Positions 23,340 to 50,727 of a stretch of 64,000 nt of DNA are shown piece after piece; the stretch's first letter is position 1, and each line of letters starts with the position of its first letter. Source of the DNA: Sporopachydermia quercuum (taxonomy: Eukaryota); assembly GCA_001599295.1 (NCBI GenBank), contig BCGN01000001.1:62001-126000 (forward strand), read 5' to 3'. A program made the translations under genes and the position numbers. Under the pieces are notes generated by a model. That model was not told where the DNA came from and searched no databases. It saw only the letters and a list, made by a program, of their open reading frames with translations.

Positions 23340-24738
23340 ATGATTGAATATTCAGGAAAGTTAGTTTTGGCTCCTATGGTAAGTTCTTGATTTAGTGCAA
23401 GGGAGTAAAGGAACATTATCTATATAGTATTGCCTTGCCTTGATTTATGAATATACTAACCCTTTTTGAAGGTTAGGATAGGTCATCTTCCTACACGTCT
23501 GGTAGCTTTGAAGTATGGAGCAGATTTGGTTTGGGGACCGGAGATCATCGACAAAAAACTTGTGAAATGCCGAAGGGTAGTTAATGGTATGTTAAAAAGA
23601 ACTTTTTGTTATTATCTTTTCTAATATTCATACTTGGTACTAATTCAGGTTTCTTATAGAGCAACTTAAAACTATAGATTTCATAGAACCCGGGGAAACA
23701 ATCAAAAATAATGTTGCTTTCCGCACAGCTCGTGATATGGAAAAAGGAAAGCTAGTATTTCAATTAGGGACTGCTGATCCTGATTTAGCTGTAGAAGCAG
23801 CCAAAGTTGTAGCACAAGATGTTGATGCTATTGATGTGAATTCGGGATGTCCCAAACATTTTTCTATTCATTCAGGAATGGGAGCAGCACTATTGCGAAC
23901 ACCAGACAAGCTTGTTGCAATTCTAAGAAATCTCGTTGAACATGTGGGAATTCCGTATAAAATACCGATCTCAGTGAAAATCAGATTATTAGAAGAGAAA
24001 GAGGCTACATTGGCTTTGGTAGAAAGACTTGCTCAAACTGGTGTGCAATGCATAACAGTGCATTGTCGTTTAACGGAAATGCGAAATCGACAAATCCCTA
24101 TTAGACTCTACCTGAAAGAGATTGTAGATGTGTGTCATAAATTCAATGTCTCCTGTTATGTCAATGGAGGTGTAAGAGACAGAGTAGACTTTGAAGGATT
24201 AAAATTAAAGTATGGAGTCGATGGTGCAATGATCGCTAGCTCAGCTGAGTTGAACCCCTCGGTGTTTGCTCAATTAACTGAAGAAGAAAAATCAAAAATA
24301 GAAGAGCTATTTAAAGAGCAAGAAACAGGTAAATACGACTATGAATTACATCCTACTATCCGGAACATTCAGCCTTGGTGGACAGTAGCTGCTGACGTAT
24401 GCAAAGAGGCTATCAAATACGACAATTTCCCTGCAAATACAAAGTATTGTTTGACAAGAGTCGTTCCAGGTAAAGAAGCGACTTACAGAAATGTCGCTCA
24501 ATCGAAAAACAACGAAGAAATGTCCAATGCAATATCCAANTTTATTAAGGATATCAAACAAGAAGTGCAGGAGGATCAGAAAACTCAAATGCAAACAACA
24601 GATTTTAATGACAATAGTGATGTCCAAACCGAAAGTATTGGTGATAGTAAGATTCATGAAGATGAAAGCATATGTGAAATGAAAAGACCACTAAGTCCAG
24701 AAACTGAAATTTCAGTGGATAAGAGAATTCGAGTTTGA
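23340..24738 (+). CDS. DUS2: tRNA-dihydrouridine(20) synthase, 3 exons: 23340-23378, 23472-23586, 23660-24738
   Basis: Spliced N-terminus MIEYSGKLVLAPM|VRIGHLPTRLVALKYGADLVWGPEIIDKKL, then FQLGTADP and IDVNSGCPKHFSIHSGMGAALL. Introns are GTAAGT..TACTAAC..AAG and GTATGT..TACTAAT..TAG. S. cerevisiae name SMM1. Confidence 0.93.
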
Positions 24739-24887
24739 TGGAACTAGATGTAACATATATAAGTGCATATACATAATAGAACAAACCAGGTAAAGGAAGG
24801 TTAGATAATTGTAAAATCAACGTTACTATGTACATAACTAAAAAAGGAAGAATCTTGAGGGAAATAAAACCTTACATTACCATTTAA

Positions 24888-25529
24888 CTAATCCCTGGAG
24901 CTGATAATAGCTCTCTTCAATCCACACCATCCAGTAGCAACCGCACCAATAACAGCTGATGAAATAGCCATTGGCCGCAGACCTTTAGTACTTCGGAAAA
25001 TGGCTCCCGAAATAAAACCAGCAGCAATAGAATTAAGATCATCATGTTTACCTCTAAATCCATCAATAGCACTGTTAACTAGATTGTAGATCATAGCACA
25101 TACACCAGCGCTGTTACCAATGAAAGGACCACGTCTAGTGATAGAGTTGAGCACAGTATTTATCTTCAGCTTGGTTGGTTGACCAGCTTTGATTGCAGAC
25201 AAACCTTCTGTTAAACCATAAGCACCACCAGTACCCAATCCCAGTAAATAAACCGTACCAGTACCGTAACAAAGATCATCGGTCCAACCTCTCGAAGGGA
25301 TGATAGCGTCATGTCCTTGTAATGTTGATAAACCATCATCTTCTAAATCCAAAAACTCTAAATCTTTGCCAACTCCTGCTAAAGGATGCAATTTTTCAAA
25401 GTCAACAGATTGTGAAAGAAATGAGTTAACATCTTGAACTGCTGAAGGATCAAATCCTAATGCTTGTGAAGACCCTGTTTCAGAGATGGTCTCTTCCTTC
25501 TTTTTACTACCGCCTAAAAGCCACGACAT
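24888..25529 (-). CDS. TIM23: Mitochondrial inner-membrane translocase subunit Tim23
   Basis: LHPLAG, PSRGWTDDLCYGTGTVYLLGLGTGG and LNSITRRGPFIGNSAG motifs. Confidence 0.96.
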   Translation of the reverse strand: MSWLLGGSKKKEETISETGSSQALGFDPSAVQDVNSFLSQSVDFEKLHPLAGVGKDLEFLDLEDDGLSTLQGHDAIIPSRGWTDDLCYGTGTVYLLGLGTGGAYGLTEGLSAIKAGQPTKLKINTVLNSITRRGPFIGNSAGVCAMIYNLVNSAIDGFRGKHDDLNSIAAGFISGAIFRSTKGLRPMAISSAVIGAVATGWCGLKRAIISSRD

Positions 25530-26754
25530 CTTGTGCCTATTCTATATTGTGTGTTGTTGTATGTATGCTAAATAGGAAAAAATCCCTTATGATGGAAATT
25601 TTCAATCTGGCGTATTGGTTCCGTTTGATCAAGCTCGTTGAATGCAAAGTTCGCTTCCTTTATTGTCTATATTCATCTATCCGTAGAAATACTGGCAACC
25701 CTGTCCACACAACCGGCAGCGTATCACTATATCACATAAATCAAGCAAGTTCTTCTAAAGTAAGACTTCGGTGCTATGAACACTTAAATCAGTATATTTG
25801 AATATCGTTAATTTTGCTAATAGAGGGACCAACAATAAGTATATTTTCCTCCTTTTCCGGTTCTGAGGAAAGCGAAAAATTGAANAAAGTGAAAAATTGT
25901 TATGTCAGGACAAGACTGACAAGACATATCACTGATATTCTATTGCCACAATAACTTACCAAGAAACGTGACTTAATTTTCTGATGAGATGAGTCTTGTA
26001 GACAAAATAGTATGACATATGACATATAGGTGTATGGGTGATGTGTACTTAATAATTTTTCAGTCCTGAAGATTAATGGAAGAACTTCCGTAATTAGGTT
26101 ATTTGGAGTGAGCTGTCATGTTAGAAAGATGGTAGGTAATGAGACTCAACGGGTATCTAATTCAGGNGGGCTGATCGTGAGATTTAGGGAAGAAACTGCT
26201 ACTGGAAAGTTCAAGAGATTGTTGAGTTTTTAAAAGCCGAAGTTTGAACTTAATATACCAGAGTAATCATGTCAAAAGCCGGAAATTGACTCTGATGGCT
26301 TAATGGGTGAATTGTCTGTATATCTTAAAGAACAATCAAGCTGAATGAAATTGGGCTGTAAAAGAAGATTCGATGGGTAAGGAAAGGTGTGCTAGAAGAA
26401 GGAAGACATGATGTAGTTCAGAAAAATAACAATGGTTAATTCAAGATTAACTTGGTACATTAATTGTAGTGTTTAGTTACCTTAAACCGCAAAATAAAAT
26501 TCGAATTTCAGTTTAACTGTTTGTGTAGATGGCTTATGATGATAAATTGACTAATGTTACTATTGTATAATGGCTTCTTAATTACAGGTAACTAATGATA
26601 AGTAACTATGTTAGACATGGAATACCAAACGTGAAGATCATGATAAACCTTGGACTACAGAATCAACCCAATATATGTCAGAGTTGTANTTCAATCTTAC
26701 TTATTACGATCCAAGTTCTAAGTACATTTACGTCTCGTATTAGCGACGTCTCAT

Positions 26755-26861
<107 letters not shown>

Positions 26862-29077
26862 CTCAGCCCTAGCTAATCAGACAATCTAGATTCACTTGTC
26901 AATCTTGACACTAGCGATCTTTCCCTATAAAGCTGGTTTTATTAGAAACGCATATATCCTCTCATCACTGGAAATTAATACCCCAGTTTTACGGCTCCTG
27001 CCTTTTGATACAAGATCTCGTCTTGCTTGAATGATGATGATTCCCTTGAACAATTTAGTTTTTTTTCAGTACTTGTAGTTTTCACCAAAATGTGTTTTCG
27101 ATCCGTCTGTACAAATCTAATTGAACGATCTTGTATTAAATTTCCAATTCACTTAACACATCATTATTTAAGATTATCTATCTGCCCTTGATTTCTAGCA
27201 TTATCTACTCATCTCTTTCAATTACTTGGTAATATTCTCTTTATCGCCGATTCGTTGGGCATAAATTATAAGAGAAAATGTTGGGGTCCTAATAACGGAC
27301 TCTGTCCGAGTGTCCTAATAGTAGTCCTGTTTAACTTGGTGTTGCGTTTGACTAAGCGGGGAAAACTGCATAAAAAATAGAAAATGCGATTATTTTGTAT
27401 GAGTTTGGTTATTTATAATATAAGATGTGCCTACTTTGGGAACTATTCTACTATTTAATTAGAAGCAAATAATGCTGAATGGTTAGGAAACAGTATAACA
27501 TATTTACATGAGGCTATTATTAACGGTTGTGAGCTTTGCTTTGAATAAGATGCATGTGGGAATATGTGATGTTGAAAAACATGCATAATACTGCATGCTG
27601 ATAAAAACGGAGATGTCATCTAGAGACTACTATAATAACAACAACGAGACACCAAAAACAATTTTTATTTCACACTTTTTTTAAATAGGTACGAATATTA
27701 TCCCTCTAATAAGGAGGTGCNATAATTAATACACCCCAATATCAACAATTAGATCAACTTCTACCGACCAAACCCTTTGAATTCGACACGCCCTCCAGAT
27801 TCGTCTAGTGCTGTCCTACATATCATGCATGAAATCCTAAACCCAATTCATATTTCCAGTCTCCAGTATGCCCCCTATAGATTCTTTCAGTTCTTCATAT
27901 ATCTCCATCTTCACACCACATACAACTAGTTACTGCTCTTCATACAATCTCCTCTTATTCCATTAATCTATATTTCCACTTTCAATCTTGCAACAATTTT
28001 ATTTCACATCTTCCTTTTTTCCTTTCGTTGCCTATAAAAATCTGTTCGACATTCATCCCACCACTCGTATATCAAGCTGCCAAACTCAATTTCTGTTGGC
28101 TCTCCATGTAATTGTTAAAGTTGATTTCCCGGTTTTTGAAATACATTTTATTCCGTACACATACCATTTCGCAATCGTTTATTTACAGCATTTCTTCAAA
28201 AAAACGTCATCAACAGTGTCAATTTCTACTATATTTCTCNTGTTTGAGGAGAATTGTCTCTAGAGAATCAGCTCTGTATTGCCCTAATTTCAACCTAATG
28301 AAGACATAAGAAGCCGGGCTGCGCTTCATTGTACCTTAAACACTCCTTCCGTTCACTCTCTTCCTATGTAACCAATACGGTAAGCGTAAGCCTCCCATTT
28401 CCTCACGCGTCCGTTAAGCGTTTCATTAAGTTGGTTTCGAGCGACACGTAAGAATGAAAAATATGATATACGGGAATAGAAACGTAGTTTCACTATAAAC
28501 AATCTTTCCAGCTAACAAGTAATGTATTATTGGATTAATTGCTACAGTTTTATATATACTAAGACTAGTACTGTACTTGTTGTATTCTGTTCGTCTTCCT
28601 CTATATCCAGGTTGTATCACAGGTTCGATAGCTTTTCCGTTCTCATTTCTCAACACATCTTACTGTTGGTGTTTTCCCATTGTCCATTAAATTACCTTAG
28701 ACTGTATCAAGTTGTTGTTTGACAAATCATTAAACGCAACGCGATACTTGAGCCTTTACAAGGTTGGGATTAACAATAGAAATAAAAGTGATTCTACGGT
28801 GCTAAGAAGGAAACTGCATGATATCGGGTTGACATTGTATTTCAAAAGTTCAGTACCAGTATCAGTATCAGCATCTTATTTGCATTGGTTCAATATTGGA
28901 AACCTGAGATTGAAATCGACATCATCAACATCGAAATCAATATTAACCGCAAGATTACCATTTGTATATAACTATAGCTATAACTATAACTTGAAGGGTA
29001 ATTGTCTCAGCAGTCGATTTGGAACCCCATCTAATAACCATTCAATCCACACAACACCTACAACACAAGCAGCAAAT

Positions 29078-32000
29078 ATGGCTTCAGTGATTTACTCCCA
29101 CGATAAACTGCCTCCCCATTTCATTGGGTTGAACACTATTGATCGGGCTGAACCAGGACCAGTTCGTGAATTTGTTCAGTCTCATGGCGGTCATACTGTT
29201 ATCACCAAGGTTCTTATTGCGAATAATGGTATTGCTGCTGTTAAAATGATTCGCTCAGTTCGAAAATGGGCTTACGAAACATTCAATAACGAAAAAGCTA
29301 TTCAATTTGTCGCCATGGCCACTCCTGAAGATTTGGAAGCCAATGCCGATTACATTAGAATGGCTGACCAATACATTGAAGTCCCCGGTGGAACTAATAA
29401 TAATAATTATGCTAACGTTGAACTTATTGTTGACGTTGCTGAAAGAACCGACGTTAATGCTGTTTGGGCCGGTTGGGGTCATGCTTCAGAAAACCCAAAA
29501 TTGCCAGAAATGCTGGCCGCTTCTCCAAAGAGAATCCTNTTCATTGGTCCTCCTGGTTCCGCTATGCGCTCTTTAGGTGATAAAATCTCTTCTACTATTG
29601 TTGCTCAGCATGCCAAGGTCCCCTGTATTCCATGGTCTGGTACTGGTGTTGAGGAAGTTTTAGTTGACGAAAAGACTAATCTAGTATCAGTTACTGATGA
29701 GGTATATCAAAAGGGATGTTGTACATCTCCACAAGATGGTTTGAAAAAGGCCAAAGAAATTGGTTTTCCTATTATGATTAAAGCCTCTGAAGGTGGTGGT
29801 GGTAAAGGTATTCGGAAGGTCGAGAGAGAAGAAGATTTTTTATTAATGTATGATCAAGCAGCATCCGAGATTCCTGGTTCACCGATTTTCATTATGCAGT
29901 TGGCTGGTGATGCCCGTCATTTAGAAGTACAATTACTTGCTGATGAATACGGTAATAATATTTCCTTGTTTGGTCGTGACTGCTCTGTTCAAAGAAGACA
30001 TCAAAAGATTATCGAAGAAGCCCCAGTAACTATAGCCAAACCTGATACTTTCACAGCTATGGAAAAAGCTGCAGTTAGATTGGGTAAATTAGTAGGCTAT
30101 GTTTCTGCTGGTACTGTCGAATACCTTTACTCTTATAAGGACGACAAGTTTTACTTCTTAGAGCTGAATCCTCGTTTACAAGTAGAACATCCTACTACCG
30201 AAATGGTCACCGGTGTGAATTTACCTGCCGCTCAATTACAAATTGCCATGGGTATCCCGTTACATCGAGTAAGAGACATTAGATTGTTATATGGTGTTGA
30301 TCCTCATACTGCTACCGAAATTGACTTTGAATTCTCCACTGAATTATCTAAGAAGACCCAAAGAAAACCTGTGCCCAAGGGACACACCACTGCTTGTCGT
30401 ATTACTTCTGAAGACCCTGGCGAGGGATTCAAGCCTTCTAGTGGTATGATGCATGAGCTGAACTTCCGATCGAGTTCTAACGTTTGGGGTTATTTCTCTG
30501 TCAGTAACCAGGGTGGAATTCATTCGTTTTCTGACTCACAATTTGGTCACATTTTTGCCTTTGGTGAAAATCGTCAAGCCTCTCGTAAACATATGGTTGT
30601 AGCTCTAAAGGAGTTGAGCATTAGAGGTGATTTCAGAACTACTGTCGAATACTTGATCAAGTTGTTAGAAACACCAGCTTTTGAAGGGAATAAGATCACA
30701 ACTGGTTGGCTTGATGAATTAATCTCTAAGAAGCTCACCGCTGAAAGGCCCGACTCACACTTGGCAGTTATTTGTGGTGCAGTCACTAAAGCGCACATTG
30801 CTTATGATGAAAGCATCAAAGGCTATATTAACTCTTTAGAAAGAGGTCAGGTATCACCTGCAGACACTCTCAAGACGATTTTCCCGGTGGATTTCATTTA
30901 TGAAGGTGTTAAATACAAGTTCACTGCTACCAAGTCATCCTTAGATACATATACATTATTTGTCAATGGAAGTAAATGCCAGGTTGGTGTTCGAGCTCTT
31001 GCTGATAGCGGTTTATTGATATCCATTGGTGGTAAGTCCCATAATGTGTACTGGAAGAAGGAAGCTGCTGGCACGAGATTGTCTGTTGATTCAATGACCT
31101 GTTTATTAGAAGTTGAATCCGATCCAACCCAGTTGAAGACACCATCTCCTGGTAAGCTGGTTAAGTATTTAGTAGAAAATGGTGATCATATCAAGGCAGG
31201 TCAACCTTTTGCTGAAGTGGAGGTGATGAAGATGTTCATGCCTTTAGTTGCTCAAGAAGACGGTATTGTCCAGCTAATCAAACAGCCAGGATCAACTCTG
31301 AATGCTGGTGATATATTGGCTATTTTGGCTTTAGACGATCCTTCAAAGGTGAAACATGCTTTGCCCTATGAAGGCACCTTACCGGAATTTGGAGCTCCTA
31401 AGATTTCTGGTGATAAGCCTTCTCAGAAATACAGATTGTTATATTCTACTTTAGAGAACATTCTTATGGGTTTTGACAATCAAGTCGTGATGAAGCCAAC
31501 ATTAGCGGCTTTGATTGAAGTATTAAGAGACCCTGAATTACCTTACTCATCATGGCTTGCAAAAGTGTCTGCTTTACACAGCAGATTACCGGCCGAGTTA
31601 GATGCCACTTTGAACAGTTTAGTGGAGAAAGCAAGCCACCGAAAGGTTGAGTTCCCCGCTAAGCAAATATTAAAAGCCATTAAGAAGTTTGCTGCTGAAC
31701 AAAAAGTGGATCATGCATTCAAAGATGCTGTTGCACCATTGATTGAAATCGCCGAAGAATTCTCTGAAGGTTTACTTGTTCATGAGTATAAAGTATTTGC
31801 TGGCTTACTAGAAGAATACTATAAAGTTGAGCAGTTATTCTGTGGACAAAATGTTCGTGATGACGATGTTATTTTGAGGCTTCGTGACGAAAATAAGGAT
31901 GATCTATTCAAGGTTGTGTTGACAGTGTTATCACACTCTAAATGCAGTTCAAAGAACAACTTGATTCTTGCTATTCTTAATGAGTATCAACCATCAAAAA

Positions 32001-35000
32001 TTAATCACGGTAATGTCTCAACATACTTCAAACCTGTGTTAAAGAAGTTTGTTGAACTAGAATCTCGATCGTCAGCTAAAGTTGTTTTNAAAGCAAGAGA
32101 AATCCTTATTCAATGCGCGTTACCTTCTTTGAAAGAACGCAGTGATCAATTAGAGCATATTTTGAAATCATCAGTGATGGAAACGAGCTATGGATCTGTT
32201 GGTTTATCTCATCGATCACCTGAATTCGAGGTGCTGAAAGACGTTATTGATTCCAAATTCACAGTTTTTGACGTGTTATCGCAATTCTTAAACCATTCTG
32301 ATCCTTATGTAGCCATTGCTGCTATGGAAGTGTATGTGAGAAGAGCTTACAGGGCTTATATCGTTAGTGATATCAAGTATATCAATGACGATGAAGGTGC
32401 CCCTGTTATCAACTGGAAGTTCAAGTTACCAACGTTAGCTGCTGCTGCTTATAATGCAGTTGCTCCTAATGCTATTCGAACTGGTCAAGGCAATATGGGA
32501 AGAGCATTATCGGTGTCGGATTTGACTTATGTTAGTACTGGTAATAAGTCCGATAGCGAGCCAATGAGAAATGGTGTTATTACTGCTGCTTCTCATATCG
32601 ATGAGTTGGATGAAGCTCTATCAAGGGCTTTGGACGCTACCCCGAAGAAATCGTTGTCTATCAATGCTGTTCGCAACAATATTCTGAACCCAAGAGATNC
32701 TCGTGACAATTCGCCTCCTATCAGTGCTAAGGAGCTGACGAATGTCTGTAATGTTGTTATTAGTAGTATTGATGGTTATGAAACTGACGCTGATGTGTTA
32801 GATAAGATTCAAGAATTCATAAAGGATGCTAAAGATGATTTACTTGCTGGCTCCATCAGAAGATTGACTTTTGTTCTAGCCAATGATTTAGGTAAATACC
32901 CNAAGTACTATACTTTCCGTGGTCCTGAATACAAAGAAGATAAGGCAATTAGACATATTGAACCAGCTTTGGCGTATCAATTGGAACTTCGAAGACTTTC
33001 CAACTTTAACATCAAGCCAGTTTTTACTGACAATAGAAACATTCATGTATATGAAGCTGTTGCTAAGAATTCCAGCACTGATAAGCGGTTCTTTACTAGA
33101 GGTATTGTTCGACCTGGCAANATCCGTGATGACATTACTACTGCTGAATATCTTATTTCTGAGGCTGATAGATTGATGAGTGATATTTTGGATGCTTTAG
33201 AAGTTATTGGCACAACCAACTCTGATCTTAACCATATTTTCATCAACTTCTCTGCTGTGTTCAGTCTTGTTCCTGAAGAGGTTGAAGCTGCTTTTGGTGG
33301 ATTCTTGGAAAGATTTGGTAGAAGGTTATGGAGATTAAGAGTCACTGCTGCTGAAATTAGAATCATGTGTACTGACCCTGCCACAGGTGTTCCTTTCCCC
33401 TTAAGAGCCATGATTAACAATGTATCTGGTTATGTTGTAACCAGTGAATTATACGTTGAAGCCAAAAACTCTGATGGAGAATGGGTTTTCAAGTCTCTCG
33501 GTAGGCCTGGTAGTATGCATATGAGAAGTATCTCAACTCCTTATCCTACAAAGGAGTGGCTACAACCCAAAAGATACAGTGCTCATTTGATGGGGACCAC
33601 TTACTGCTATGATTTCCCTGAATTGTTCCGACAGGCTGTTTTATCCTCTTGGCATAATTACAACTCCAAAGCTAAAATTCCTGATGATTTTTTCTCATAT
33701 AAGGAATTAATTCTTGAGCAAGGAACTGAACTTTCTGAAGTNTCAAGGGAACCTGGGGCCAATACTTGTGGTATGGTTGCTTGGAAGTTGTTCATGAAAA
33801 CACCGGAATACCCACGGGGAAGAGAGATTATTGTTGTTGCTAATGATATCACTTTTAAGATTGGTTCCTTTGGTCCCGAAGAAGATAAGATGTTCAACAA
33901 GGTAACTGAATTCGCTAGAGAGTTAGGAATTCCCAGAATCTACTTGTCAGCGAACTCCGGTGCACGAATTGGTATTGCCGATGAGCTTATCCCATTGTTC
34001 TCAGTTGCATGGAATGATGCTGAAAACCCTGATAGGGGCTTCAGATACTTATACCTTACTCCTGATGTAAAGAAGAGTATGGATAAGCAAAATGTCACTT
34101 CTTGTATTACTACTAAGATTGTTGAAGATGGTGAGGAAAGATATAGAATTGATGCTATNGTTGGTGCTGAAGACGGTCTTGGTGTTGAATGTTTAAGAGG
34201 ATCAGGTCTTATTGCTGGTGCTACTTCTCGGGCATACAAAGACATTTTCACAATTACCTTGGTCACTTGTAGATCTGTTGGTATTGGTGCTTATTTAGTC
34301 AGATTAGGTCAAAGAGCCATTCAAATTGAAGGTCAGCCTATTATCTTGACTGGTGCTCCAGCCATCAATAAATTATTGGGTAGAGATGTATATAGTAGTA
34401 ATTTGCAACTGGGTGGCACCCAAATCATGTACAGAAATGGTGTTTCTCACTTGACTGCTAATGATGATTTAGAAGGTGTTGAGCAAATCGTTGAATGGCT
34501 GTCTTATGTTCCTTCAAAGAAGGGTATGCCTGTTCCCGTGTTAGAATCAGAAGACACTTGGGACAGGGATGTGGACTACATACCTATCAAAAGTGAACCT
34601 TATGATGTCCGTTGGTTAATTTCTGGCAGAGAAACTGAAGATGGATTTGAATATGGTTTGTTTGATAAGGGATCCTTTAGAGAAACATTAGGTGGATGGG
34701 CTAAGGGTGTTGTGGTTGGCCGCGCAAGATTAGGTGGTATACCTATTGGTATAATTGGAGTTGAAACTAAGACAATTGAGAACTTATCACCTGCTGATCC
34801 TGCTAATCCCGGCTCAACTGAGAATCTAATTCAAGAAGCTGGTCAAGTTTGGTATCCTAACTCTGCTTTCAAGACCGCCCAAGCTATCAATGATTTCAAC
34901 AATGGTGAGGAGTTACCATTGATGATCTTAGCCAACTGGAGAGGTTTCTCTGGTGGTCAAAGAGATATGTACAACGAAGTGTTAAAATACGGTTCGTTTA

Positions 35001-35785
35001 TTGTTGATGCCCTCGTTAACTTCAAGCAGCCAATTATGATTTATATTCCACCCACTGGTGAACTACGTGGTGGCTCATGGGTCGTTGTTGATCCAACCAT
35101 TAACCCTGATATGATGGAAATGTATGCTGACTATGAATCAAGAGCCGGTGTCTTGGAACCAGAAGGAATGGTTGGTATTAAATATAGAAGAGAGAAGTTG
35201 ATTAGGACAATGTCCAGATTAGATGCAAAATACAAGGAACTGAAGAGCAAGATTGAGAACAGTGAAACACCTGCTGAAGAACTTTCTAAATTAAAGGCAG
35301 CCCTTGTCGAAAGAGAAAAGGAATTGTATCCTATTTATCAACAAATATCTGTTCAGTTTGCTGATTTGCACGATAGAGCTGATAGAATGGTTGCCAAGGG
35401 TGCTATCAGAAAGGCTCTCAAGTGGAGAGATTCTCGAAGATTCTTCTTCTGGAGATTGAGAAGACGTTTGAATGAAGAATACTTGTTGAAGAGAATTGCT
35501 ACTGCTTTACCTAGATCTACTAGACTCGAAAGGGTTGCCAGACTCAAGTCCTGGTATCCTGGTAAAATCGATCTCAATAACGACCAAGAGGTTGCTCTAT
35601 GGATCGAAGAAAATCATTTGGCTATTGATGACCTTGTCAAGAGCTTGCAATCTGATTCTGTTCATCAGTTCGTTGAAACCTATGTTCGCCTGAATAGAGC
35701 CAATGCCCTTGAAGGTCTTGCTAAGGCCTTGAAGAATTTCAGCCCTGAAGAACAAGAAGAATTGTTCAGAGCTGTGCAAAACTGA
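29078..35785 (+). CDS. ACC1: Acetyl-CoA carboxylase (BC-BCCP-CT). First in-frame AUG is at 29078; the frame stays open upstream to 28691
   Basis: [24 protein letters not shown], biotinylation motif EVMKM, Snf1-site motif RALSVSDL, and [13 protein letters not shown]. Confidence 0.98.
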
Positions 35786-49849: not shown

Positions 49850-50727
49850 ATGGTAAGTCAAAATGGAGTGGTGAATGGCGGAGATCAGCAAAATAGAGTG
49901 AATTGACAAGCATTTTTATAGAATCATATACTAACGTGTTGTAGCCTCAAAACGAATATATTGAAAGACATATCAAGCAGCATGGTAGAAGGCTTGATCA
50001 TGAAGAGCGTAAGCGAAAGAAGGAAGCCCGTGAAGGCCATAGAATTGCCAAAGATGCTCAAAACTTAACCGGTTTCCGAGCTAAGATGTTCGCTAAGAAG
50101 CGATACTCTGAAAAAGTGGCCATGAAGAAGAAGATTAAAGCTCATGAGGAATCAAAGGTCAAAGGACCAAGCAAACCAACCGAGGATAATGGGGAAGCTT
50201 TACCTACATATCTTTTGGACAGACAGAATACCAACACTGCCAAAGCATTATCAACTTCTATTAAGCAAAAGAGAATGGAAAAAGCTAGTAAATTCAGTGT
50301 TCCTTTACCCAAGGTCAGAGGTATCAGTGAAGAAGAGATGTTCAAAGTTATTAAGACCGGTAAGAAGAAAACCAAGAGTTGGAAGAGAATGATCACCAAA
50401 CACACTTTTGTTGGAGAAGGCTTCACCAGAAGACCAGTAAAGCTTGAAAGAATTATTCGTCCTTCTGCTCTACGTCAAAAGAAGGCCAATGTTACACACC
50501 CTGAGCTCGGTGTTACTGTTTTCTTACCNATTTTAGGGGTAAAGAAAAATCCTCAAAGCCCTATGTATACACAACTAGGTGTTTTGACCAAAGGTACTAT
50601 TATTGAGGTCAATGTTAGTGAATTGGGTTTAGTCACTGCTGGTGGTAAGGTTGTTTGGGGTAAATATGCTCAGATCACTAATGAGCCTGATAGAGATGGA
50701 TGTGTGAATGCTGTCCTTCTTGTTTGA
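49850..50727 (+). CDS. NSA2: 60S ribosome biogenesis protein Nsa2, 2 exons: 49850-49852 (ATG only) and 49945-50727
   Basis: ATG|GTAAGT...TACTAAC GTGTTGTAG|CCTCAAAAC gives [31 protein letters not shown]...[10 protein letters not shown]. Confidence 0.97.

Follow-up and report, generated by a model that had tools for sequence, protein, structure and literature searches.

Does the only acetyl-CoA carboxylase gene (ACC1) of the yeast Sporopachydermia quercuum also specify a mitochondrial enzyme, started at a non-AUG codon upstream of the annotated AUG? The question arises from a 64,000-nucleotide stretch of contig BCGN01000001.1 (positions 62,001 to 126,000, forward strand; the window, in whose numbering all positions are given), where the ACC1 frame stays open well beyond its first AUG. 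The open reading frame (ORF) from ATG 29078 encodes a complete acetyl-CoA carboxylase (ACC), with eight Pfam families matched, and is preceded by 129 open codons, without an in-frame ATG, that follow a TAA at 28688–28690. These coordinates, together with an ACGGTG at 28796–28801, agree in full with an initial annotation of the window, which had proposed that the GTG opens a mitochondrial isoform. The frame and the gene that it leads into are as follows.

28691..29077, + strand: stop-free, AUG-free frame of 129 codons in register with ACC1 (frame reading, with shuffle and gene-start nulls)
29078..35785, + strand: ACC1 coding sequence, 2235 aa, AUG context at the 72nd percentile, the cytosolic isoform

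The open frame is a real feature and goes beyond chance. After mononucleotide shuffling, all 129 codons stay stop-free in 9 of 100,000 sequences and 93 codons in 109 of 100,000, and the remaining two plus-strand frames over the same stretch contain 9 and 13 stops. Among 60 comparable long-ORF starts from 600 kb of the same genome, none has at least 50 open upstream codons (maximum 47); the set was reached from 108 long ORFs by removing 22 for a strict splice acceptor and a further 26 that lack an A at −3. At least 93 open upstream codons are seen at nine of the 108, all with an acceptor-like motif (8 strict, 1 relaxed) and an internal-exon-like appearance. Noncoding frames (n = 10,245) include none with at least 129 open codons and four with at least 93, a control that we give little weight because the masking of frames of at least 150 codons as coding biases it low.

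A non-AUG arrangement for mitochondrial ACC was first proposed by Turunen et al. 2009 (PMC2704937). Suomi et al. 2014 mapped the start of the Saccharomyces cerevisiae paralogue HFA1 to an AUU at −372 and reported that the Kluyveromyces lactis ACC rescues an hfa1 deletion only with its upstream region (12/18 versus 0/18); cryptic non-AUG signals were also listed for K. waltii, A. gossypii, and P. pastoris, and the arrangement was proposed to be ancestral (Table 4, PMC4263661). The statement that non-AUG extensions had been proposed for the single-copy ACC1 of yeasts predating the whole-genome duplication (WGD) therefore matches the literature, with K. lactis as a demonstrated case (PMC4263661). 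As in K. lactis (KLLA0F06072g), the S. quercuum gene is the single ACC gene and has an AUG-less in-frame upstream region (83 aa in K. lactis) that is basic and acid-poor. Unlike K. lactis, S. quercuum stands on an earlier branch, its frame is longer (129 codons), less basic, and repeat-rich, an out-of-frame upstream AUG (uAUG) is present, and the genome encodes an ACSF3-like enzyme. The K. lactis ACC1 arrangement is functionally proven; that of S. quercuum is predicted from sequence. The likeness to HFA1 lies in a non-AUG start that is here predicted to add an import signal to an ACC. HFA1, however, arose in the WGD as a dedicated paralogue, and catalytic sequence forms part of its AUG-less region, while the AUG-started S. 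quercuum product is complete and the gene is single copy. Yarrowia lipolytica, likewise a basal yeast with a single-copy ACC1 (YALI0C11407), has a product that is partly mitochondrial as a GFP fusion (PMC5210315) and a predicted mitochondrial targeting signal (Table 4, PMC4263661). That signal sits inside the annotated AUG-started ORF, in contrast to S. quercuum, where no upstream in-frame AUG is present. In our best reading, ACC1 of S. quercuum probably has a cryptic non-AUG mitochondrial isoform made from its single-copy gene, most likely as a new example of the arrangement demonstrated in K. lactis.

The gene content of the genome is consistent with this reading. The ACC carboxyl-transferase domain PF01039 has one match in the genome, which is ACC1 itself, so that no second, HFA1-type ACC gene was found; two of the other biotin-carboxylase matches (L002 on contig C8 and L004 on contig C1) are pyruvate carboxylases that both pass TIGR01235. 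Genes of mitochondrial fatty acid synthesis (mtFAS) and lipoate formation are present, namely MCT1-like (FabD-like), CEM1-like (a stand-alone ketoacyl synthase), LIP2 (LipB), LIP5-like (LIAS_N), and BPL1 (biotin ligase), and mitochondria thus have a use for malonyl-CoA. In a quick ACC tree of 38 N-terminal halves (first 1100 aa; 37 homologs picked by hand from 120), the source yeast separates later than the Lipomyces- and Dipodascales-type yeasts and earlier than the crown group (SH-aLRT support only, 98 and 100), which we take to be where the small orders Alloascoideales and Sporopachydermiales sit. The presence of two pyruvate carboxylase genes in a yeast that branches before the WGD is an observation in its own right. 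An alternative genetic code was considered and rejected in favor of the standard one: in an alignment with six homologs, 10 of the 13 ACC1 CTG codons fall mostly on Leu, one on Met/Leu, and two at variable sites.

Similar extensions recur at other yeast ACC1 loci. From 80 genomic loci kept of 161 confirmed, we used 49 distinct metagenome loci in which the cytosolic Met can be identified, after dropping duplicates and intron-split N termini and assigning yeast or filamentous type by our own reading. Extensions of at least 45 codons are found at six of the eight yeast-type loci, with 0.9% acidic residues overall, versus 9 of 41 filamentous-type loci with 5.2%. One of the two yeast exceptions is an S. 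cerevisiae-type ACC1, while a basal-yeast-looking locus (L036) has a 69-codon extension. At least two of the six extended yeast loci (L032 and L049) contain an upstream in-frame AUG. Basic, acid-poor extensions of 15–92 aa are also present in 28 of the best 120 of 2,898 matching proteins; these 28 were picked by eye, and their starts are the choices of gene callers. Separately, the metagenome yeast locus L032 shows an intron candidate running from GTATGT at −388 to TACTAAC...TAG at about −77, ending inside its extension; its removal would take out the upstream AUG, making splicing an isoform switch there. At L097 a candidate intron lies in the 5′ untranslated region (UTR), before the extension begins; L048 shows a branch point and an acceptor immediately ahead of its Met.

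The extension that would start at the GTG has the composition previously claimed for it (93 aa with 5 Arg, 5 Lys, 1 Asp, 0 Glu, 15 Ser, and 9 Thr) and is Ser/Thr/Asn-rich and repetitive. Its presequence-like nature, judged by simple features (charge, acidity, and the hydrophobic moment, muH, of the first 30 residues), is modestly supported. The GTG product has a net charge of +3 and a muH of 0.51, near the median of 27 homolog N termini (+4 and 0.53). Acidic residues are scarce (at most one in 93, P = 0.017; none in the last 85 codons, P = 0.004), and this scarcity is a better presequence signal than the basic content. Three further elements lie within the extension.

29015..29023, + strand: Arg-Phe-Gly, possible cleavage site of the mitochondrial processing peptidase (MPP), 20 residues before the Met
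28850..28875, + strand: hexamer array (TCAGTA)x4.3, frame-preserving
28967..28991, + strand: hexamer array (TATAAC)x4.2, encoding YNYSYNYN, its start overlapped by TATATAA 28965–28971

The putative cleavage site would follow the R-2 rule of MPP, and the motif R.?[FY][STAG] occurs in 10 of 28 homolog extensions versus 16 of 237 control translations. The repeats in 28799–29077 have periods of 6 and 12. Their signal sets in near 28820 and is weak or absent further upstream, and as high a score is reached by 6 of 864 noncoding and 15 of 594 coding windows, in a null that is tilted toward a translated extension by the masking of windows with frames of at least 80 codons. Such periods are as expected if insertions and deletions have been constrained to keep the frame, which would argue for translation.

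Which codon would start the extension is less clear-cut than the frame itself. We scored 20 near-cognate codons with a start-context matrix built from 79 starts of the same genome, and the candidates of interest, with the one uAUG among them, are these.

28796..28801, + strand: tandem near-cognate ACG-GTG, candidate start of a 93–94 aa extension (MLRRKLH...), GTG context at the 9th percentile
28818..28832, + strand: out-of-frame 4-codon upstream ORF (uORF) in very weak context; no other AUG occurs in the 387 nt that precede the main one
28835..28837, + strand: alternative near-cognate start TTG, 72nd percentile, 2 nt past the uORF stop, product muH 0.21
28895..28906, + strand: alternative near-cognate starts ATT 28895 (72nd percentile) and CTG 28904 (20th percentile; MRLKSTSS...), muH 0.39

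The GTG does have the A at −3 noted previously; its overall context is nevertheless weak for this genome, and it is one among several candidates, TTG 28835 and ATT 28895 being better placed, so that its designation as the specific start is supported no further than as a possibility. Products started at ACG or GTG are more amphipathic than those from these two better-context codons. Redundant non-AUG starts occur as ACG-ACG in S. cerevisiae ALA1, and the ACG-GTG pair at ACC1 is reminiscent of them. Provided that ACC1 does have a non-AUG isoform, this pair may be its main start, an assignment that we hold with some hesitation. The uORF (ATG ATA TCG GGT TGA) lies at 28818–28832, as described before. 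Its AUG, however, scores below all 79 reference starts and has the poorest context of the AUGs tested, so it cannot absorb much scanning and would be leaked past, contrary to the role of capturing leaky ribosomes that had been assigned to it. The S. cerevisiae ACC1 leader is also long and contains a short repressive uORF, at −340 there (Blank et al. 2017, cited in 10.1101/2021.01.03.425130) and at −260 here; in that gene it represses translation of cytosolic Acc1 and there is no extension, whereas the S. quercuum uORF lies inside the extension frame in very weak context.

The proposal that two transcription starts separate the isoforms rested on the TATATAA at 28965, which is indeed present 113 nt before the ACC1 AUG. 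This element fits the 7-base form of the TATA consensus, fails the 8-base form TATAWAWR, and overlaps the (TATAAC)x4.2 array. Full consensus boxes are found further upstream, and beside them lies one weak intron candidate.

28551..28558, + strand: consensus TATA box TATATATA, 527 nt upstream of the AUG, which would put the start site upstream of the whole open frame
28033..28040, + strand: second consensus TATA box TATAAAAA, within a C-rich, G-poor stretch
28448..28547, + strand: weak candidate 5′-UTR intron, GTAAGA ... AGCTAAC 28510 ... CAG, 100 nt, upstream of the open frame

Because of these upstream boxes a second transcription start is not needed, and that part of the proposal is unsupported beyond being possible; a short additional transcript might also arise from the 28965 element. 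Transcription starts lie about 30 nt (classic) or 40–120 nt (scanning) downstream of a TATA box (PMC7849388), and the 28551 box would accordingly give a leader of roughly 400–490 nt that covers the whole frame and contains one very weak uAUG. Across 73 starts, the upstream positions of TATA matches do not cluster clearly, so that such a match by itself carries little information. The candidate intron, which lacks statistical support, would delete uAUGs at 28454, 28463, and 28522. Minimal AUG-stop elements (ATGTAA) at 28106–28111 and 28366–28371 and a 3-codon uORF at 28298 lie below the 28033 box and would be relevant only to a leader that starts there.

The course that we infer from these elements, from leader transcription through choice of start codon and translation to import and cleavage, is as follows. 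A long leader, starting probably 30–120 nt below the 28551 TATA box and perhaps further up, would span the open frame. A small share of scanning ribosomes, a few percent, would initiate at one of the near-cognate codons in the interval from about 28740 to 28905; the ACG-GTG pair is the most plausible site, with TTG 28835, ATT 28895, and CTG 28904 as alternative or redundant ones. The basic, acid-poor N-terminal extension would be imported and then clipped, possibly at Arg-Phe/Gly, and the imported ACC would supply matrix malonyl-CoA for mtFAS and lipoate. Most ribosomes would leak past the near-cognate codons and the weak uAUG to AUG 29078 and make the cytosolic ACC, the uORF being at most a mild dampener like that of S. 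cerevisiae ACC1. Leaky scanning on a single mRNA is the usual route for dual-localized fungal enzymes (PMC7049704 and PMC6582344). The core of the initial annotation, one gene making two ACC isoforms, is favored by the single copy, the mtFAS genes, the extensions elsewhere, and the K. lactis proof, while its GTG, two-start, and uORF components are supported no further than as possibilities.

A search of the genome for AMP-binding enzymes returned 14 matches, one of which bears directly on where matrix malonyl-CoA might come from.

contig C4, about 437,990–440,078, minus strand: L180, gene for an ACSF3/MatB-like malonyl-CoA synthetase, two canonical introns toward the 3′ end

All five Protein Data Bank (PDB) matches of L180 at E ≤ 1e-20 are malonyl-CoA synthetases. 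ERYGMTE is a motif of malonyl-CoA synthetases and is present in L180 and in 117 of 120 homologs. The AUG-started N terminus of L180 is presequence-like, with nine Arg/Lys and one acidic residue in the first 50 aa. Malonate is its putative substrate; against the curated model of bacterial malonyl-CoA synthase, NF005702, a partial L180 query scores 133.6 bits, far below the cutoff of 558. The names that sources give to its homologs vary: malonyl-CoA synthetase or ACSF3 for some, oxalate-CoA ligase or Pcs60 for others. Where ACSF3-like relatives in the best 120 of 270 matches are named, they belong to filamentous fungi or to yeasts of the Lipomycetales and Dipodascales types; crown-group yeasts are missing from these names, an absence that does not prove loss.

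Several results weigh against a mitochondrial isoform. Since the hexamer arrays reduce the number of independent codons, the chance probability of the frame rises by hand arithmetic to roughly 2–3e-4, which amounts to about one such gene per genome, and hexamer repeats also ease the chance origin of an open frame. The GTG context is weak, the best-context codons yield poorly amphipathic products, and no start-enhancing hairpin stands out in five windows downstream of the candidate starts (z −1.46 to +0.59). On charge, amphipathicity, and acidity jointly, 9.7% of 4,950 noncoding frames equal or exceed the GTG product. Arg makes up 5.4% of the extension versus 5.2% of the noncoding background, and Arg and Lys are at 5.4% each versus 9% each in homolog extensions. 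Synonymous codon usage sits at the noncoding median (−0.021), in a test that is weak and uninformative. No close relative is among the best 120 of 2,898 proteins (best about 72% identity) or the 80 loci, from which very near genomes may be left out. In addition, the ACSF3/MatB-like enzyme offers another probable source of matrix malonyl-CoA, so that a mitochondrial ACC would not be obligatory; its presence weakens the argument from necessity and makes it more likely that the frame is a relic. In this relic account, the stretch is promoter or leader sequence that is not translated or is a relic, and chance plus hexamer microsatellites have left it free of stops; the ACSF3-like enzyme supplies the mitochondria, and ACC1 is cytosolic only. 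The account draws on the PDB matches and presequence-like N terminus of L180, on the modest presequence scores, background Arg level, and noncoding codon usage of the extension, and on the one frame per genome expected by chance. The last point is less damaging because ACC1 was an a priori candidate: the frame sits on the very gene that the literature predicts. Moreover, none of the 60 comparable gene starts comes close, similar extensions are present at six of eight yeast loci including L036, and the substrate of L180 is itself only predicted, given its bit score. We regard the relic account as unlikely, although it deserves serious consideration. A translated extension could also act otherwise than in import, as a regulatory or low-complexity tail or a translation-tuning element. 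The products of the best-context starts at 28835 and 28895 have muH values below 27 and 26 of the 27 homolog N termini, respectively, and the repetitive Ser/Thr/Asn-rich sequence would suit such a role. The scarcity of acidic residues, the Arg-Phe motif near the end, and the mitochondrial function of the equivalent K. lactis region argue otherwise, and we consider this explanation quite improbable.

Splicing offers another explanation, either by joining an upstream AUG exon or through an intron that ends within the frame, so that the cytosolic mRNA loses the extension together with the uORF. Short introns of the type GTAAGW/GTATGT ... branch point ... YAG are numerous in this genome, and five introns were read by eye in three window genes. 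De novo calling, which examined lengths up to 350 nt, gave 39 candidates (54–346 nt); only the top 10 or so of these look genuine. All nine other long upstream frames have acceptor-like motifs, the yeast relative L032 has its canonical intron candidate ending inside the extension, and branch-like GATTAAC (28768) and TATTAAC (28941) lie within the frame, TTAAC branch points being known in this genome. Those two are nevertheless the only such motifs, with no RCTAAY inside the open frame, and no GTAAGT or GTATGT donor occurs between 26100 and 29078. The GTAAGC donor-like motifs near the frame are at 28380 and 28386, where they had been placed. Joining 22 near-consensus donors to 21 AGs gives an in-frame AUG in 123 cases, 31 with a branch-like motif. 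All 31 require introns of at least 702 nt, against the 54–346 nt of the candidates, and none uses the donors at 28380, 28386, or 28448; shorter in-frame-AUG joins require donors two mismatches off consensus. Downstream branch points are in excess for GTAAGT and GTATGT and not for GTAAGA (7 versus 16 controls) or GTAAGC (2 versus 10). A spliced upstream AUG exon, split AUG included, was accordingly rejected, as the enumeration, which covered single-intron joins, contains no plausible case. ACC1 thus has no upstream in-frame AUG, contiguous or by a plausible single intron, and does not resemble the AUG-started type of Y. lipolytica and the CTG clade. We judge an origin of the region in splicing to be improbable.

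If a mitochondrial ACC1 isoform is made, the one-gene, two-compartment model of yeast ACC would extend to a lineage that branches before the groups with shown non-AUG initiation, and the annotated ACC1 protein would miss an isoform, which on its own is expected. The added value lies in the co-occurrence of the ACC1 extension with an ACSF3-like enzyme; that synthetase and the frame-preserving hexamer repeats are new in this analysis. It is conceivable, though doubtful, that two routes to matrix malonyl-CoA coexist here, one through a mitochondrial ACC1 isoform with a non-AUG start and the other through a malonate-CoA ligase resembling ACSF3. ACSF3 would then have been lost from crown yeasts only after the cryptic ACC1 presequence had appeared, and this loss would be the reason why Hfa1 became necessary for respiration. 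This timing is suggested because the ACSF3-like relatives lack named crown yeasts while acid-poor ACC1 extensions typify yeasts and not filamentous fungi. The weakly basic, repeat-expanded extension would then be a presequence under relaxed selection in a lineage with a backup. A mitochondrial ACC1 was reportedly proposed for mammals by Monteuuis et al. in 2017. That enzyme is disputed, and ACSF3 has been reported as not required for lipoylation (PMC13769450); coexisting ACC1 and ACSF3 routes to matrix malonyl-CoA are discussed (PMC13228397 and PMC13769450). S. quercuum would resemble mammals in having two possible routes in one organism, with both yeast proteins predicted only, and would offer a simple genetic system for ACC versus malonate activation as the matrix malonyl-CoA source, a matter debated in mammals (PMC13769450 and PMC13228397). 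The literature covered, with few subscription papers and no supplements, contains no description of this lineage's ACC1, of a fungal ACSF3 beside HFA1, or of two-route coexistence in a yeast.

Upstream near-cognate starts that add import signals form a wider class. In the MT-NTE class, which includes S. cerevisiae Ala1, Grs1, Bpl1, Trz1, and Rnh1 (Monteuuis et al. 2019, PMC6582344), and in DualNCC genes (Wallace et al. 2020, PMC7049704), such a start yields an isoform competent for import; leaky scanning accounts for most cases, sometimes with help from alternative transcription starts. The predicted near-cognate start of S. quercuum ACC1 would be of this kind; the genes of those classes have ribosome-profiling or localization data. 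The name ACC1 has no occurrence in the main text of Monteuuis et al. 2019 (PMC6582344). In the same genome, BPL1 (L109, contig C7) has 52 AUG-less open codons with one acidic residue before its first Met, making it a candidate for a non-AUG mitochondrial biotin ligase isoform as in S. cerevisiae, a parallel that favors the ACC1 reading. GRS1 (L119, contig C8) has 103 AUG-less codons, but a GTATGT lies at −827, and both a branch point and an acceptor fall at about −48; it possibly combines a non-AUG presequence with a spliced upstream exon, and we did not count it as support. ALA1 (L120, contig C4) has a dual AUG arrangement in which a weak-context AUG at −96 opens a presequence-like peptide, and its candidate 5′-UTR intron (GTGAGT at −331, acceptor at about −124) is clearer than that of ACC1.

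Within the window, ACC1 is adjoined by a divergent Tim17/23-family gene and a dihydrouridine synthase gene with two 5′ introns (positions 23340–25529 and 29078); SMM1, ACC1, and TIM23 are presumably neighbors in S. cerevisiae as well. Between TIM23 and ACC1 lies a pure poly(A) tract of 101 nt at 26756–26856, with flanks that are not repeated in the genome; candidate origins are a retroposed tail, a nucleosome-excluding tract, or an assembly artifact. A mobile element in 25900–27400 was considered and rejected, the only genome match besides self being 27140–27251 to contig C9:244715–244831 (about 117 nt, 76%). A search for hidden noncoding RNA gave no Rfam match at E ≤ 1 in 25400–29300. Inside ACC1, the near-invariant AVKEIRS of the biotin carboxylase reads AVKMIRS, with Met encoded at 29246–29248 by an in-frame AUG that has an A at −3; homolog matches have Glu in 117 of 118 and Met in one. 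Elsewhere in the window, an NSA2-like gene at 49850–49944 has a first exon that consists of its AUG alone (ATG followed directly by GTAAGT ... TACTAAC ... TAG).

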